A stretch of 53,345 nucleotides of DNA from Escherichia coli (GTDB lineage Bacteria > Pseudomonadota > Gammaproteobacteria > Enterobacterales > Enterobacteriaceae), in NCBI RefSeq assembly GCF_003334405.1, contig NZ_QOWM01000021.1, one strand, 5' to 3'. Made by a program: the position numbers and the translations under genes. The notes below the pieces were generated by a model. The model saw only the letters and a program-made list of their open reading frames with translations, was not told the origin of the DNA and did not search any database. This document shows, one piece after another, positions 3,476 to 44,600 of this stretch (position 1 is its first letter; every line of letters starts with the position of its first letter).

Positions 3476-4906
3476 ATGATACGTAAGTCAGCTACAGGTG
3501 TTATTGTTGCGTTAGCCGTAATCTGGGGTGGTGGCACATGGTACACAGGTACGCAAATTCAGCCTGGTATCGAAAAATTTATTAAAGATTTTAACGATGC
3601 TAAAAAGAAAGGTGAACATGCCTACGATATGACGTTAAGTTATCAAAATTTTGACAAAGGCTTTTTTAATTCCCGTTTTCAAATGCAAATGACATTCGAT
3701 AACGGTGCACCCGATCTCAATATCAAGCCAGGCCAGAAAGTTGTATTTGATGTGGATGTTGAGCACGGTCCGTTGCCCATCACAATGTTAATGCATGGTA
3801 ATGTCATCCCAGCACTGGCAGCGGCAAAAGTGAACTTAGTGAATAATGAACTGACACAACCGCTATTTATCGCCGCGAAAAATAAATCGCCCGTGGAAGC
3901 GACATTGCGATTCGCGTTTGGTGGCTCATTCTCTACGACATTAGATGTTGCCCCTGCAGAGTATGGAAAGTTTTCTTTTGGTGAGGGCCAGTTTACTTTT
4001 AATGGTGATGGTAGTTCATTGTCTAACCTGGATATTGAAGGCAAAGTCGAAGATATTGTTCTGCAATTATCACCAATGAACAAAGTAACGGCAAAAAGTT
4101 TTACCATTGATTCTCTGGCGCGATTAGAAGAAAAGAAATTTCCGGTTGGTGAAAGCGAGTCGAAATTTAATCAGATTAACATTATCAATCACGGGGAAGA
4201 CGTTGCCCAAATCGATGCTTTCGTTGCAAAAACCAGGCTGGATCGCGTTAAAGACAAAGATTATATCAATGTCAATCTCACCTACGAACTTGATAAGTTA
4301 ACAAAAGGGAATCAGCAACTCGGTAGTGGTGAGTGGTCATTGATTGCTGAATCTATTGATCCCTCAGCAGTGCGCCAATTTATCATCCAGTATAACATTG
4401 CGATGCAGAAGCAGCTTGCTGCACACCCTGAGTTAGCAAACGATGAAGTTGCTCTGCAAGAAGTGAATGCTGCATTGTTCAAAGAGTATTTACCGTTATT
4501 ACAAAAAAGTGAGCCGACCATTAAACAACCGGTAAGATGGAAGAACGCACTCGGCGAACTAAATGCCAATCTGGATATCAGTATTGCCGACCCAGCCAAA
4601 TCTTCATCATCCACAAACAAAGATATCAAATCGCTCAATTTTGATGTGAAGTTACCGCTTAATGTCGTCACAGAAACCGCAAAACAGCTTAATTTATCTG
4701 AAGGAATGGATGCGGAAAAAGCGCAAAAGCAGGCTGATAAACAAATCAGCGGGATGATGACATTAGGTCAGATGTTTCAGTTAATCACGATTGACAACAA
4801 TACCGCCTCGCTGCAGCTGCGTTATACACCGGGTAAAGTTGTTTTTAACGGACAGGAGATGAGCGAAGAAGAATTTATGTCTCGTGCCGGACGTTTTGTT
4901 CATTAA
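3476..4906 (+). CDS. yihF: DUF945 family envelope protein YihF
   Basis: ORF-track frame starts at GTG 3434; I prefer ATG 3476 (MIRKSATGVIVALAVIWGGGTWYTG..., N-terminal hydrophobic segment), giving 476 aa. Confidence 0.85.
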   Translation: MIRKSATGVIVALAVIWGGGTWYTGTQIQPGIEKFIKDFNDAKKKGEHAYDMTLSYQNFDKGFFNSRFQMQMTFDNGAPDLNIKPGQKVVFDVDVEHGPLPITMLMHGNVIPALAAAKVNLVNNELTQPLFIAAKNKSPVEATLRFAFGGSFSTTLDVAPAEYGKFSFGEGQFTFNGDGSSLSNLDIEGKVEDIVLQLSPMNKVTAKSFTIDSLARLEEKKFPVGESESKFNQINIINHGEDVAQIDAFVAKTRLDRVKDKDYINVNLTYELDKLTKGNQQLGSGEWSLIAESIDPSAVRQFIIQYNIAMQKQLAAHPELANDEVALQEVNAALFKEYLPLLQKSEPTIKQPVRWKNALGELNANLDISIADPAKSSSSTNKDIKSLNFDVKLPLNVVTETAKQLNLSEGMDAEKAQKQADKQISGMMTLGQMFQLITIDNNTASLQLRYTPGKVVFNGQEMSEEEFMSRAGRFVH

Positions 4907-6242: not shown

Positions 6243-9029
6243 ATGGTTCAGATCCCCCAAAATCCACTTATCCTTGTAGATGGTTCATCTTATCTTTATC
6301 GCGCATATCACGCGTTTCCCCCGCTGACTAACAGCGCAGGCGAGCCGACCGGTGCGATGTATGGTGTCCTCAACATGCTGCGCAGTCTGATCATGCAATA
6401 TAAACCGACGCATGCAGCGGTGGTCTTTGACGCCAAGGGAAAAACCTTTCGTGATGAACTGTTTGAACATTACAAATCACATCGCCCGCCAATGCCGGAC
6501 GATCTGCGTGCACAAATCGAACCCTTGCACGCGATGGTTAAAGCGATGGGACTGCCGCTGCTGGCGGTTTCTGGCGTAGAAGCGGACGACGTTATCGGTA
6601 CTCTGGCGCGCGAAGCCGAAAAAGCCGGGCGTCCGGTGCTGATCAGCACTGGCGATAAAGATATGGCGCAGCTGGTGACGCCAAATATTACGCTTATCAA
6701 TACCATGACGAATACCATCCTCGGACCGGAAGAGGTGGTGAATAAGTACGGCGTGCCGCCAGAACTGATCATCGATTTCCTGGCGCTGATGGGTGACTCC
6801 TCTGATAACATTCCTGGCGTACCGGGCGTCGGTGAAAAAACCGCGCAGGCATTGCTGCAAGGTCTTGGCGGACTGGATACGCTGTATGCCGAGCCAGAAA
6901 AAATTGCTGGGTTGAGCTTCCGTGGCGCGAAAACAATGGCAGCGAAGCTCGAGCAAAACAAAGAAGTTGCTTATCTCTCATACCAGCTGGCGACGATTAA
7001 AACCGACGTTGAACTGGAGCTGACCTGTGAACAACTGGAAGTGCAGCAACCGGCAGCGGAAGAGTTGTTGGGGCTGTTCAAAAAGTATGAGTTCAAACGC
7101 TGGACTGCTGATGTCGAAGCGGGCAAATGGTTACAGGCCAAAGGGGCAAAACCAGCCGCGAAGCCACAGGAAACCAGTGTTGCAGACGAAGCACCAGAAG
7201 TGACGGCAACGGTGATTTCTTATGACAACTACGTCACCATCCTTGATGAAGAAACACTGAAAGCGTGGATTGCGAAGCTGGAAAAAGCGCCGGTATTTGC
7301 ATTTGATACCGAAACCGACAGCCTTGATAACATCTCTGCTAACCTGGTCGGGCTTTCTTTTGCTATCGAGCCAGGCGTAGCGGCATATATTCCGGTTGCT
7401 CATGATTATCTTGATGCGCCCGATCAAATCTCTCGCGAGCGTGCACTCGAGTTGCTAAAACCGCTGCTGGAAGATGAAAAGGCGCTGAAGGTCGGGCAAA
7501 ACCTGAAATACGATCGCGGTATTCTGGCGAACTACGGCATTGAACTGCGTGGGATTGCGTTTGATACCATGCTGGAGTCCTACATTCTCAATAGCGTTGC
7601 CGGGCGTCACGATATGGACAGCCTCGCGGAACGTTGGTTGAAGCACAAAACCATCACTTTTGAAGAGATTGCTGGTAAAGGCAAAAATCAACTGACCTTT
7701 AACCAGATTGCCCTCGAAGAAGCCGGACGTTACGCCGCCGAAGATGCAGATGTCACCTTGCAGTTGCATCTGAAAATGTGGCCGGATCTGCAAAAACACA
7801 AAGGGCCGTTGAACGTCTTCGAGAATATCGAAATGCCGCTGGTGCCGGTGCTTTCACGCATTGAACGTAACGGTGTGAAGATCGATCCGAAAGTGCTGCA
7901 CAATCATTCTGAAGAGCTCACCCTTCGTCTGGCTGAGCTGGAAAAGAAAGCGCATGAAATTGCAGGTGAGGAATTTAACCTTTCTTCCACCAAGCAGTTA
8001 CAAACCATTCTCTTTGAAAAACAGGGCATTAAACCGCTGAAGAAAACGCCGGGTGGCGCGCCGTCAACGTCGGAAGAGGTACTGGAAGAACTGGCGCTGG
8101 ACTATCCGTTGCCAAAAGTGATTCTGGAGTATCGTGGTCTGGCGAAGCTGAAATCGACCTACACCGACAAGCTGCCGCTGATGATCAACCCGAAAACCGG
8201 GCGTGTGCATACCTCTTATCACCAGGCAGTAACTGCAACGGGACGTTTATCGTCAACCGATCCTAACCTGCAAAACATTCCGGTGCGTAACGAAGAAGGT
8301 CGTCGTATCCGCCAGGCGTTTATTGCGCCAGAGGATTATGTGATTGTCTCAGCGGACTACTCGCAGATTGAACTGCGCATTATGGCGCATCTTTCGCGTG
8401 ACAAAGGCTTGCTGACCGCATTCGCGGAAGGAAAAGATATCCACCGGGCAACGGCGGCAGAAGTGTTTGGTTTGCCACTGGAAACCGTCACCAGCGAGCA
8501 ACGCCGTAGCGCGAAAGCGATCAACTTTGGTCTGATTTATGGCATGAGTGCTTTCGGTCTGGCGCGGCAATTGAACATTCCACGTAAAGAAGCGCAGAAG
8601 TACATGGACCTTTACTTCGAACGCTACCCTGGCGTGCTGGAGTATATGGAACGCACCCGTGCTCAGGCGAAAGAGCAGGGCTACGTTGAAACGCTGGACG
8701 GACGCCGTCTGTATCTGCCGGATATCAAATCCAGCAATGGTGCTCGTCGTGCAGCGGCTGAACGTGCAGCCATTAACGCGCCAATGCAGGGAACCGCCGC
8801 CGACATTATCAAACGGGCGATGATTGCCGTTGATGCGTGGTTACAGGCTGAGCAACCGCGTGTACGTATGATCATGCAGGTACACGATGAACTGGTATTT
8901 GAAGTTCATAAAGATGATGTTGATGCCGTCGCGAAGCAGATTCATCAACTGATGGAAAACTGTACCCGTCTGGATGTGCCGTTGCTGGTGGAAGTGGGGA
9001 GTGGCGAAAACTGGGATCAGGCGCACTAA
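6243..9029 (+). CDS. polA: DNA polymerase I
   Basis: 928-aa [33 protein letters not shown]...; 5'-3' exonuclease, 3'-5' exonuclease and polymerase motifs (e.g. [17 protein letters not shown]). Confidence 0.98.
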
Positions 9030-9175
9030 GATTCGCCTGAACATGCCTTTTTTCGTAAGTAAGCAACATAAGCTGTCACGTTTTGTGATGGCTATTAGAA
9101 ATTCCTATGCAACAACTGAAAAAAAATTACAAAAAGTGCTTTCTGAACTGAACAAAAAAGAGTAAAGTTAGTCGC

Positions 9176-9284
9176 GTAGGGTACAGAGGTAAGATGTTCT
9201 ATCTTTCAGACCTTTTACTTCACGTAATCGGATTTGGCTGAATATTTTAGCCGCCCCAGTCAGTAATGACTGGGGCGTTTTTTA
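9176..9284 (+). ncRNA. spf: Spot 42 small RNA
   Basis: gtagggtacagaggtaagatgttctatctttcagaccttttacttcacgtaatcggatttggctgaatattttagccgccccagtcagtaatgactggggcgttttttta matches the remembered 109-nt Spot 42 sequence, including the terminal hairpin CCCCAGTCAgtaaTGACTGGGG plus U-tract. Confidence 0.9.
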
Positions 9285-9309
9285 TTGGGCGAAAGAAAAG
9301 ATCCGTAAT

Positions 9310-9390
9310 GCCTGATGCGCTATGTTTATCAGGCCAACGGTAGAATTGTAATCTATTGAATTTACGGGCCGGATACGCCACATCCGGCAC
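9310..9390. repeat. REP pair (BIME) downstream of spf / engB
   Basis: gcctgatgcgctatgtttatcaggcc and gggccggatacgccacatccggcac palindromic units. Confidence 0.5.
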
Positions 9391-9409
9391 AAGCATTAAG
9401 GCAAGAAAA

Positions 9410-10042
9410 TTATTCGCCGTCCTGCGTTTCTTCTACAGGCTGCATCTCGCTAAACCAGGTATCCAGTTTCTGCCGCAGCTTGTCCACGCCTTGTTTCTTC
9501 AACGAAGAAAACGTTTCAACCTGCACATCACCGTTAAACGCCAGTACAGCTTCACGCACCATATTCAATTGCGCTTTACGTGCGCCGCTTGCCAGTTTGT
9601 CCGCTTTGGTCAGCAGCACCAGAACGGCGATATTGCTGTCTACCGCCCACTCAATCATCTGCTGATCCAAATCTTTCAGCGGATGGCGAATATCCATTAG
9701 CACCACCAGACCTTGCAGGCTCTGACGTTTTTCGAGGTATTCGCCGAGCGCACGCTGCCATTTGCGCTTCATCTCTTCCGGGACTTCCGCATAACCGTAC
9801 CCAGGCAAGTCAACCAGACGCTTGCCGTCAGCCACTTCAAACAGGTTGATAAGCTGGGTGCGCCCTGGGGTTTTTGAGGTACGAGCCAGGCTTTTCTGGT
9901 TAGTCAGCGTGTTCAGCGCGCTGGATTTACCTGCGTTGGAACGGCCTGCAAAAGCCACTTCAATTCCGGTATCGGAAGGTAGGTGGCGAATATCAGGCGC
10001 ACTCATCACAAAATGCGTCTGTTGATAATTCAAATTAGTCAA
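9410..10042 (-). CDS. engB: Ribosome biogenesis GTP-binding protein EngB (YihA)
   Basis: 210-aa ORF with G1 motif [15 protein letters not shown], and LTKADK. Confidence 0.95.
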
Positions 10043-10312: not shown

Positions 10313-10556
10313 ATAGAGCGAGGACGCTAACAGGAACAATGACTCAGGATGAGGGTCAGGAGCGCCAGGAGGCGAAGACAGAGGATTGTCAGGAAGACAA
10401 ACGTCCGGAGACGTAATTAAACGGAAATGGAATCAACACGGATTGTTCCGGCTAAAGGAAAAACAGGGTGTGTTGGCGGCCTGCAAGGATTGTAAGACCC
10501 GTTAAGGGTTATGAGTCAGGAAAAAAGGCGACAGAGTAATCTGTCGCCTTTTTTCT
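10313..10556 (+). ncRNA. csrC: CsrC small RNA (CsrA-sequestering)
   Basis: About 244 nt starting atagagcgaggacgctaacaggaacaatgactcaggatgagggtcaggagcgccaggagg..., with about 14 GGA motifs (many as CAGGA), ending in hairpin GGCGACAGagtaatCTGTCGCC plus TTTTTT; lies between engB and yihI as expected. Confidence 0.85.
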
Positions 10557-10623
10557 TTGCTTGCTTTCTGTTAGATTCCGCCGCAAATCTATACTGAATA
10601 AAACGGCTAAAAGACGAACCATT

Positions 10624-41610: not shown

Positions 41611-44600
41611 TTACACCTTTTCCACATTCACAAGGAAGGACTTAAACTCCGGCGTCTGCGTGTTCGCATCACCAACGAATGGCGTTAAAGTATTGGCAAT
41701 AAAGCCTTTTTTAGCTACGCCTTCATAGCCCCAGTGAATCGGAATACCGATGGTATCGATATCTTTGCCGTTCGCTTTCAGCGTGCGAATACGTTTGGTC
41801 ACCACCGCTTTGGCTTTGATATAGCCACGGTTGGAGGAGACTTTCACGGTATCGCCCTGGGCAATGCCAAGTTTATTCGCCAGCGACTCCCCGATTTCCA
41901 CAAACTGCTCTGGCTGCAAAATCGCGTTCAACAGCGCGTGTTTGGTCCAGTAGTGGAAGTGCTCGGTCAGACGATAGGTGGTTCCGACATACGGGAACTT
42001 ATCGGCTTTACCCAATGCTTCGGCGTCGTCTTTAAAGATACGTGCAGCCGGGTTCGAGATAACGTTTGGATGCAGCGGGTTAGTTCCCAGCGGCGTTTCA
42101 AACGGCTCGTAGTGTTCCGGGAACGGACCTTCCGCCATCTTATCGAGGGCAAACAGACGCCCCATGCCTTCCTGCTGCATGATAAACGGCCCGACGCCGC
42201 TACCCGGAGGCGCTGCGCTGTAGTCCGGAATATCCCAGCCGGTCCACTTAGTGCCGTCCCATTTCAGCAACTGACGCTTCGGATCCCACGGGTTACCCTG
42301 CGGATCTGCGGAGGCGCGGTTATACAGAATGCGGCGGTTAAGCGGCCATGCCCATGCCCAGCCCAGCGTGTTACCGAGGCCAGACGGATCGGCGTTATCA
42401 CGGCGTGCCATCTGGTTGCCTTCCGGCGTCCAGCTACCGGCGAAAATCCAGCAGCCACAGGAGGTTGTACCGTCATCGCGCAATTGGGCGAACGAACTAA
42501 GTTGTTGGCCTTTCTTGACGATAACCGCACCGGTTGCCGGATCGGTAATATCGGCCAGCGCCTTACCGTTGCTCTCCATCGCCACTTCTTCTGAAGATGG
42601 CTCATGCGGAATGGCGTAGTTCCATGTCATGTTCAGCACCTGGTCCGGGTTCGCGCCACCCTGTTCGGCATACATCTTGCGCAAGCGCAGGAAGATACCG
42701 GAGAGGATCTCGCCGTCAGTCAGCGCAATCCCCGGGGCGTCCGCACCTTTCCAGTGCCACTGTAACCAGCGACCTGAGTTAACGATAGAACCGTTCTCTT
42801 CCGCGAAGCAGGTCGATGGCAGACGGAACACTTCGGTCTGGATCTTCGACGAGTCAACTTCGTTCAGCTCACCGTGGTTCTGCCAGAAGTTAGAGGTTTC
42901 AGTGTTCAGTGGGTCGATGGTGACGAGGAACTTCAGTTTCGACAGACAACCGATCACTTTGTTTTTGTTCGGGAATGAGGCAACAGGGTTAAAGCCCTGG
43001 CAGATATAGCCATTGACCTTGCCCTCTTTCATCATCTCGAAGTATTGCAGGACGTCGTAGCCTTTATCCCACTTCGGCAACCAGTCAAAGCCCCAGCTAT
43101 TTTCCGCCGTCGCTTTATCACCAAAGAAGGCCTTCATCATAGAGACGAAGAATTTCGGGTAGTTGCCCCAGTAGTTTACCTGGCCTTCCAGCAGCGGTTT
43201 TGGCGTGTTGGCGGTAAGGTAGGTTTGCAGATCGGTCTGCTTCTCGCTTGGCAGCGTCATGTAACCTGGCAGGCTCTGCGACAGCAGCCCCAGGTCCGTC
43301 AGCCCCTGAATATTGGAGTGACCGCGCAGGGCGTTAACGCCGCCGCCTGCCATCCCCATATTGCCGAGCAGCAGCTGGATCATCGCCATCGTACGAATGT
43401 TTTGCGCACCAACGGAGTGTTGCGTCCAGCCGAGGGCATACAGGAACGAGGCAGTTTTATCGTGAGCACTGGTTTCTGCGATGTATTCGCAGACTTTCAG
43501 GAACGCGTCTTTTGGCGTACCACAGATGTTTTCAACCACATCTGGCGTGTAGCGGGAAACGTGCTGTTTCAGCAAGTTCCACACGCAGCGCGGATGTTGC
43601 AGCGTGGTATCGCGTTTGGCGAAGCCGTTTTCGTCCAGTTCATAAGTCCAGGAGGATTTATCGTACTTGCGTTTTTCCGCGTCGTAGCCGGTGAACAGGC
43701 CATCTTCAAAGCCGTAATCCTCACGCACGATCAGGCTGGCGTTGGTATAGGCTTCGGTGTATTCGCGGTTGAATTTTTCATTGTTCAGCAGGTACAGCAA
43801 TACGCCTGACAGGAAAGCAATGTCAGTACCGGAACGAATAGGGGCATAGTAGTCAGCTACCGCCGCCGTACGCGTAAAGCGAGGATCGATCACAATCAGC
43901 TTCGCGCCGTTGTGAATTTTGGCTTCCATCGCCCAGCGGAACCCGACCGGGTGAGCTTCAGCGGCGTTACCGCCCATCACCACGACGAGGTTGGCGTTCT
44001 TGATGTCGACCCAGTGGTTGGTCATCGCACCGCGACCAAATGTTGGAGCAAGACTTGCTACCGTTGGTCCGTGTCAGACACGCGCCTGGTTGTCGACCGC
44101 GAGCATACCCAGCGCGCGGGAGAATTTTTGCGTTAAATAGCCGGTTTCGTTACTCGACGCGGAAGCACACAGCATCCCGGTGGAGAGCCAGCGGTTAACA
44201 GTCACGCCTTCGGCGTTTTGCGCAATGTAGTTAGCATCGCGGTCTTCTTTCATCAGTTTGGCGATGCGATCAAACGCCTCTTCCCAACTGATTTGCTGCC
44301 ATTTATCAGAACCTGGCGCACGGTATTCCGGAAACTTCAGACGGCTTTCGGAGTGGATGAAATCCACCAGGCCAGCGCCTTTCGGACAAAGTGCACCGCG
44401 GTTGACCGGGTGATCCGGATCGCCTTCGATATGGAAGATAGATGCTTTGGCGTTTTTTGCTCCGTCACCGAGGCTGTACATCAACAGCCCACAGCCTACG
44501 GAACAATAGGTGCAGGTATTACGGGTTTCGCGGGTGCGCAGCAGTTTATACTGCCGGGTTTCCGCGAGTGCTACGCTGGGTGCAAAACCCAGTGCCGCTG

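Follow-up and report, generated by a model that had tools for sequence, protein, structure and literature searches.

Spot 42 RNA has been known since the 1970s; its targets were described between 2002 and 2011, and the small protein encoded within it has been known since 2022. With Hfq, the RNA represses the translation of galK and of other genes for secondary carbon sources (quoted in PMC8916003). Its gene, spf, is repressed by cAMP-CRP (Polayes 1988, as cited in PMC3295665), a sigma-70 -10 element has been marked upstream of its +1 (PMC8916003), and the gene order polA-spf-yihA also occurs in Aliivibrio (PMC3295665).

Here we analyse the copy of this gene found in the window, that is, the whole stretch of 53,345 nt of E. 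coli DNA under study. Compared with spf (RF00021, b3864) and spfP (b4837) of K-12, its sequence is 100% the same and its boundaries are the same, and the two loci share the three-hairpin structure, the terminator, the polA-spf-yihA synteny, the CRP site, SpfP and the complementarity to galK. There is no difference of substance between them, the coordinates that diverge being the RefSeq 3' end (9286) and the Rfam start (9166). We hold it to be practically certain that 9176-9284 (+) is spf, the gene for Spot 42, with its own promoter, its own terminator and a dual function as RNA and as the source of SpfP. This copy is already known in full, being the K-12 sequence unchanged. The interpretation given in an earlier note on this DNA was right but incomplete, as it mentioned neither the embedded 15-codon spfP gene nor the dual function. 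The features of the locus are collected in Table 1.

Table 1. Features of the spf locus and its surroundings, in window coordinates
Feature	Position	Strand	Basis and remarks
polA (DNA polymerase I, b3863)	6243-9029	+	928-aa ORF; same coordinates annotated in NC_000913.3
Mechanical ORF, 63 codons, ATG start	8974-9165	+	ORF list; judged non-coding
Upstream block GTAAGTAAGCAACATAA	9054-9071		about -122 to -105; 17 nt, end maybe one base over
cAMP-CRP site TTTTGTGATGGCTATTAGAAAT	9081-9102		centred at -84.5; same as published E. coli spf site
A-tract block TGAAAAAAAATTACAAAAAGTGCTTT	9117-9142		-59 to -34; alignment
-10 hexamer TAAAGT (probable)	9163-9168	+	7 nt before +1
Stem-loop 1 (nt 1-48)	9176-9223	+	MFE and RNAalifold
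spfP Shine-Dalgarno GAGG	9186-9189	+	read from sequence; 4 nt before AUG
spfP (b4837)	9194-9241	+	15 codons and TGA; translation MFYLSDLLLHVIGFG
Single-stranded linker (nt 49-60)	9224-9235	+	unpaired in MFE and consensus structures
Stem-loop 2 (nt 61-77)	9236-9252	+	MFE; spfP UGA stop in 5' arm
Intrinsic terminator	about 9252-9283	+	terminator scan; 10-11 bp G+C-rich hairpin and U6 tail
REP-like palindrome	9310-9334		7-bp arms GCCTGAT...ATCAGGC
REP-like palindrome	9368-9388		7-bp arms GCCGGAT...ATCCGGC
yihA/engB (b3865)	9410-10042	-	ORF and annotation; convergent downstream neighbour
CsrC sRNA (b4457)	10313-10566	+	Rfam, 278.7 bits; about 1 kb downstream of spf

Identity, boundaries and surroundings of spf

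The earlier note had read 9176-9284 as Spot 42, immediately downstream of polA and ending in a Rho-independent terminator, and had proposed a search with the Rfam Spot_42 covariance model as the check. That search, now run, bears it out: RF00021 matches the 53-kb window at 9166-9284 (+) with 122.8 bits (E 3e-24), against a curated gathering score of 80 bits, and the match takes in the entire model (positions 1-115 of 115). A permissive local Rfam scan of both strands of 8900-9450 reproduced the Spot_42 match and returned no competing RNA family or antisense feature on either strand of that interval, the other families falling far under threshold. About 10 nt of 5' flank are built into the Rfam model, whose match accordingly starts at 9166, and for this reason 9176 fits the annotated transcription start better than 9166 does. 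The 109 nt of 9176-9284 (+) begin with GTAGGGTACAGAGG and end with GGGGCGTTTTTTA (in longer reads of the two ends, 5' GTAGGGTACAGAGGTAAGATGTTC and 3' GACTGGGGCGTTTTTTA). They are 100% identical to spf of MG1655, and the 391 bp surrounding the gene are 100% identical to MG1655 and to many other strains; the window comes from a chromosome of K-12-like type and is in register with NC_000913.3 from position 4040724 of that record. In NC_000913.3, spf (b3864, "small regulatory RNA Spot 42") occupies the stretch corresponding to 9176-9286, its 3' end falling at the T-run 2 nt beyond the classical 109-nt RNA.

Of 5426 complete E. coli genomes, 5425 carry Spot 42 as a single copy with at least 99% identity. 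One of the 5426 gave no Spot 42 match, and two of the 5425 matches sit on records labelled plasmid. Most RefSeq/PGAP records of E. coli have nothing annotated where Spot 42 lies, which means that automated pipelines still miss the gene; spfP is annotated in some of the E. coli records only, and the legacy note 'spot 42 RNA' appears in one. The value of the present analysis is one of annotation quality, with exact boundaries confirmed and spfP added beneath the "non-coding RNA" label. Its discovery value is small, the additions being the embedded spfP gene and the documented grounds against ORF 8974-9165.

The position next to polA also stands: the RNA starts on the same strand 146 nt past the polA stop codon, and the locus as a whole has the order polA-spf-yihA/engB. 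This closeness, with no terminator in between, is what would speak for the element being merely the 3' UTR and terminator of polA and no independent gene, a reading to which we give next to no probability and which the comparative data have already refuted. Among the matches listed, 97 of 117 homologous loci have the polA C-terminus immediately upstream on the same strand, whereas in Aeromonas, most Photorhabdus, Providencia, Proteus, Morganella and Tatumella no polA lies within 700 nt. Both the RNA and its promoter are conserved at listed loci of this second kind (Aeromonas, Providencia, Proteus and others), and since Spot 42 is kept there without an adjacent polA, it is not simply a polA 3' end. 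Against the UTR reading there also stand the annotated transcription start at 9176 and, upstream of it, a conserved promoter block, a -10 box and a CRP site. We thus take spf as a gene in its own right.

Several further observations concern the neighbourhood. The single GGA of the linker, at 9230-9232, is at least 90% conserved among the matches listed and has been described as a CsrA site, the binding of CsrA coming from Lai et al. 2022 as reported in PMC8916003. In a Salmonella study, CsrC was up-regulated by Spot 42. As Spot 42 is reported to raise CsrC, and CsrA to bind Spot 42, the neighbouring spf and CsrC genes are functionally linked. The two REP-like palindromes occupy the spacer from the spf terminator to the yihA stop; neither was picked up by the Rfam naRNA4 model, nor by the repeat finder with the length cut-off that it applies. 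Two minus-strand ORFs, 9247-9396 and 9282-9392, lie in this REP-containing spacer and are unannotated. The other above-threshold Rfam matches in the window, at 17495-17602 (+), 19492-19560 (+), 44021-44079 (-), 12810-12887 (+) and 53158-53320 (+), belong to the ES222 sRNA (upstream of bipA), STnc370 (overlapping the bipA 3' end), a SECIS element (within fdoG) and three naRNA4/REP-type elements, and the K-12 annotation has the GlnZ sRNA at window position 15705-15898 (-). Relative to MG1655, the window is without about 438 bp containing yiiE (b3889), near 38430-38600, while the paralog yiiF is retained. The MG1655 equivalent of the deleted region is 38430-38870 of the locus numbered L003, and the junction falls within a direct repeat of about 84 nt whose two MG1655 copies are 75% identical. 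Scattered SNPs against MG1655 are found at 3569, 12786, 26733, 27308, 32869 and 37418.

RNA structure and its conservation

The minimum free energy of Spot 42 is -40.6 kcal/mol, against -23.1 +/- 3.4 kcal/mol in 200 dinucleotide shuffles (z -5.08, with none of the 200 as good). The fold consists of a long 5' stem-loop, a short second hairpin and a Rho-independent terminator with its U-tail. The terminator named in the earlier note was recovered by a terminator scan as an 11-bp stem at 9252-9277 followed by a T-run: eight of its pairs are G-C, its 11-nt arms are 100% complementary, and the stem runs into TTTTTTATTG. It is the only terminator-like site of the scan in 8900-9500, and its stem is the only strong inverted repeat in 9030-9415. 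The U-tail of the terminator and the A/U-rich linker are features of the Hfq type, and would suit the binding by Hfq that is recorded in literature cited in PMC8916003.

For the comparison with homologs, species-representative genomes were scanned with a pattern over nt 12-37 that left six positions free, giving at least 120 loci. The matches listed belong to Enterobacterales, Vibrionales and Aeromonadales, plus Bowmanella and Aliagarivorans, two genera that we take to be Alteromonadales. Across orders, nt 1-41 are nearly invariant among the matches listed; since the pattern fixed nt 12-37, the invariance there is partly one of ascertainment, yet nt 1-11 and 38-41, which lie outside the pattern, are also essentially invariant in this set.

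When the structure of Spot 42 from the window was applied to 80 distinct homologs of three orders among the matches listed, 98.7% of the cells were paired. Ten compensatory pairs were observed in these homologs, compared with 5.0 +/- 1.3 in shuffles (none of 500 as high). Slid controls left 39-52% paired, a figure to be read as coming from a biased control, because the structure tested was drawn from the window's own MFE. The covariation is confined to the terminator and stem-loop 2. In the terminator, 8 of 10 pairs are compensatory and 99.1% of the cells are paired among the 80 sequences; in stem-loop 2 there are two compensatory pairs and 94% of the cells are paired, with G-C replaced by A-U in 11 of the listed sequences as an example. 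Stem-loop 1 has 100% of its cells paired in the same set, with changes limited to G-C becoming G-U and U-A becoming U-G, and it shows no compensatory change because it hardly varies. Working independently on the homologs listed, RNAalifold recovered stem-loop 1 and the terminator; it did not call stem-loop 2, which is thus the weakest helix.

Two of the more distant genera carry reduced forms. In Bowmanella yangjiangensis (L059:12966-13038, minus strand) we found a 73-nt Spot 42-like gene, below the Rfam threshold, whose first 40 nt, forming stem-loop 1, are invariant and are joined straight to the terminator, with the linker, stem-loop 2 and the SpfP frame absent. The RNA of Aliagarivorans (L101) passes RF00021 at 86.8 bits, but with a frame of 10 codons.

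The promoter region and the overlapping ORF

A generic sigma-70 scan of 8900-9500 returned no full -35/-10 pair, from which it follows that the spf -35 is non-consensus; the promoter elements were accordingly assigned by conservation and from the literature. (i) The probable -10 reads TA[A/G]AGT throughout the listed Enterobacterales and TACAGT or TACATT in the listed Vibrionales and Aeromonadales. (ii) The A-tract block is highly conserved in Enterobacterales, Vibrionales and Aeromonadales among the matches listed, and its position, together with general knowledge of promoters, suggests that it is UP-element-like. (iii) The CRP site of E. coli spf has been given as TTTTGTGATGGCTATTAGAAAT (Hansen et al. 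2012, PMC3295665), and the identity of 9081-9102 to it points to a promoter of its own under CRP control. No other stretch of the spacer comes as close to the 22-bp CRP consensus, from which this site departs at 5 positions (a fit as good was reached by 14 of 500 shuffles), and TTTTGTGA within it is invariant in the 34 Enterobacteriaceae sequences among the matches listed. As a separate observation, the A-tract block, highly conserved elsewhere, has lost TTACAAAAAG in E. albertii (L009) through an 11-nt deletion, and Spot 42 expression might be altered in that species.

Further upstream, the block at 9054-9071 is conserved in the alignment of the 34 Enterobacteriaceae sequences among the matches listed. 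Its core, GTAAnnAnnn[A/T]AC[A/G], stands at -121 +/- 1 in nearly all the Enterobacterales listed, even where polA is non-adjacent; a second copy of the core occurs at -58 in the listed Yersinia, Serratia, Rahnella, Hafnia and Edwardsiella, and in the listed Yersinia, Photorhabdus and Proteus the block takes the form of a palindrome, ATGTA-N7-TACAT. As a second CRP site, 9054-9071 was rejected, its 9 mismatches in 22 positions being background. In Morganellaceae and Yersinia among the matches listed, the place of the Enterobacteriaceae CRP site is taken, at about -77, by GCTGAATCG, which lies at a fixed -76 to -78 in 15 listed loci of these groups (L005, L006, L018, L030, L037, L050, L054, L056, L072, L082, L097, L103, L112, L113 and L118), where about 0.09 would be expected by chance. 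To our eye this motif resembles the left half-site of Cra/FruR. From these sequence patterns one could propose, tentatively and with the chances well against it, that the -121 block is a site for a transcription factor or nucleoid protein new to spf, and that the carbon-status input has been rewired between families. Of what is seen at spf, only these conserved upstream blocks at fixed positions are mildly new.

The same DNA is crossed by the 63-codon ORF, which the earlier note had described as overlapping the promoter region and as likely spurious. Both descriptions agree with what we find. The ORF opens in the final 56 nt of polA, +1 relative to the polA frame, crosses the CRP site and the A-tract, and ends in the -10 box, where its TAA stop takes up the first three bases. 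That it, or a 3' part of 25-40 codons (candidate starts: ATG 9043, ATG 9088 and an adjacent GTG), should be a real small-protein gene read from polA read-through transcripts seems to us extremely improbable, even with the points that can be made for it: the intergenic part of the ORF has tblastn matches in the same frame, at 50-80% identity, across many Enterobacteriaceae, a frame of 25-26 codons with a start codon is open in 24 of the 34 sequences among the matches listed, and read-through mRNA is plausible, as no intrinsic terminator separates polA from the ORF region. What decides against such a gene is, first, the absence of the marks of coding sequence. In the 34 Enterobacteriaceae listed, the three codon positions have variabilities of 0.204/0.292/0.207, the third showing no excess. 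Ten of these 34 have the frame broken or shortened, and at most 4 keep it open to the upstream limit of the alignment (45 codons). The closest relatives have indels that are not multiples of three (-11 nt in E. albertii, +1 in C. youngae L061 and -1 in Pseudescherichia). Reading of the sequence revealed no purine-rich Shine-Dalgarno ahead of any candidate start, the protein matches no family (best NCBIfam score 14 bits, against a cut-off of 110 bits), and the ORF is unannotated in the K-12 reference, which does include newly validated small proteins, spfP among them. In periodicity, indels, start signals and family membership alike, then, the ORF does not have the character of a coding gene. 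Second, the conserved remnant is made of regulatory DNA: it begins with the invariant GTGATG of the CRP half-site and stops in the -10 box, and its conserved EKKLQKVL is the A-tract, which is conserved even in the Vibrio and Aeromonas promoters among the matches listed. As the segments of the ORF coincide with the CRP half-site, the A-tract and the -10, their conservation is explained as that of regulatory DNA, and ORF 8974-9165, being put together from promoter elements, should not be called a gene.

SpfP, target pairing and comparison with other dual-function RNAs

Before 2022 Spot 42 was held to be non-coding, a view reportedly set out by Rice et al. in 1987. The window carries a Shine-Dalgarno, an in-frame AUG, 15 codons including His10 and a UGA, the combination that marks a dual-function RNA encoding SpfP. 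The frame is labelled "dual-function small protein SpfP" in NC_000913.3 and is also present in NZ_CP042893.1 (WP_071892919.1). A Shine-Dalgarno followed by the AUG has been described for spfP (PMC8916003). Among the matches listed, 111 of 119 usable loci retain the 15-codon frame and 117 of 119 retain His10.

How much this conservation says of the protein needs care, since spfP codons 1-6 and the first base of codon 7 were inside the search pattern and the rest is overlapped by RNA constraints. With so few substitutions, the conservation of the frame is inseparable from constraint at the level of the RNA; it is compatible with selection on the protein and is no proof of it. One could hold from this that Spot 42 is only a non-coding, base-pairing RNA and that the 15-codon frame is an accident of RNA constraint. 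The frame lies wholly within nearly invariant RNA, so its conservation could be a by-product; stem-loop 1, which also holds the target-pairing sequence, sequesters the Shine-Dalgarno and AUG in the predicted fold; and, among the matches listed, Bowmanella, Aliagarivorans, two Yersinia, V. breoganii and V. ezurae, as well as single Vibrio and Photorhabdus loci, have lost the frame or carry it in altered form. We nonetheless consider the accident very unlikely. Chromosomally made SpfP has been detected by means of a tag, with more of it at 42-45 C (Aoyama et al. 2022, PMC8916003). In the same study, a recoded construct producing only the protein blocks growth on galactose and a stop codon abolishes the effect, His10 is critical, and SpfP co-purifies with, and binds, CRP; the sequence used in those experiments is identical to that of the window. 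Besides, spfP is now annotated in RefSeq, and among the matches listed three of the five differences between E. coli and Vibrio outside the pattern-constrained codons are synonymous. The dual-function reading of spf is thus the one we keep.

For the base-pairing function, we modelled the duplex with the galK initiation region, taken from the K-12 galT-galK junction. As full-length Spot 42 let the terminator pair with the mRNA, nt 1-62 were used instead. Nucleotides 8-62 are predicted to pair with galK from -20 to +30, spanning the GGAG and the AUG, at -39.0 kcal/mol, against -21.2 +/- 3.7 kcal/mol for dinucleotide-shuffled Spot 42 (z -4.77, none of 1000 as good) and -20.7 +/- 4.3 kcal/mol for Spot 42 with 32 gene starts in the window. 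Spot 42 thus has antisense complementarity to the translation-initiation region of galK, in agreement with its published translational repression. An additional target, yihS, was tried and set aside: its duplex, at -30.8 kcal/mol, lies just about 2.4 sd from the mean of the window gene starts.

These elements can be arranged in a mechanism in which spf would be transcribed from its own promoter, in the 146-nt spacer between polA and spf, and its own intrinsic terminator would end the transcript. Under glucose scarcity, cAMP-CRP would bind at 9081-9102 and repress the gene, so that Spot 42 should be abundant on glucose. With Hfq, the exposed and partly structured 5' two-thirds of the RNA would then pair with the ribosome-binding regions of mRNAs whose products take up and break down non-preferred carbon sources, and would block the translation of these mRNAs; galK is the classic example. 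The same RNA would also serve as the mRNA for the 15-residue SpfP, which would bind CRP, and base-pairing and protein together would form a feed-forward loop reinforcing catabolite repression. Identity, boundaries, structure, covariation, synteny, the SpfP frame, the sequence of the CRP site and the complementarity to galK come from the present analysis, and CRP repression, Hfq dependence, target repression, the translation of SpfP and its binding of CRP from the literature on the identical K-12 sequence.

Among other known systems, CyaR is likewise an Hfq-dependent sRNA under cAMP-CRP control, but it is activated by CRP, whereas Spot 42 is repressed by it; CyaR belongs to another RNA family and another locus, and by Rfam is absent from the window. 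Carbon metabolism has further dual-function RNAs in SgrS/SgrT and AzuCR of E. coli and VcdRP/VcdP of Vibrio cholerae, in which one transcript likewise combines base-pairing with a small protein, although they are unrelated to Spot 42 in sequence and structure; SgrS, AzuCR and VcdRP have no Rfam match in the window. In these systems the small protein acts in the pathway of the base-pairing RNA (PMC8916003 and PMC8672173). They differ from Spot 42 in what the protein acts upon: SgrT, AzuCR and VcdP target a transporter or an enzyme, whereas SpfP, with its 15 residues, targets a transcription factor, CRP.
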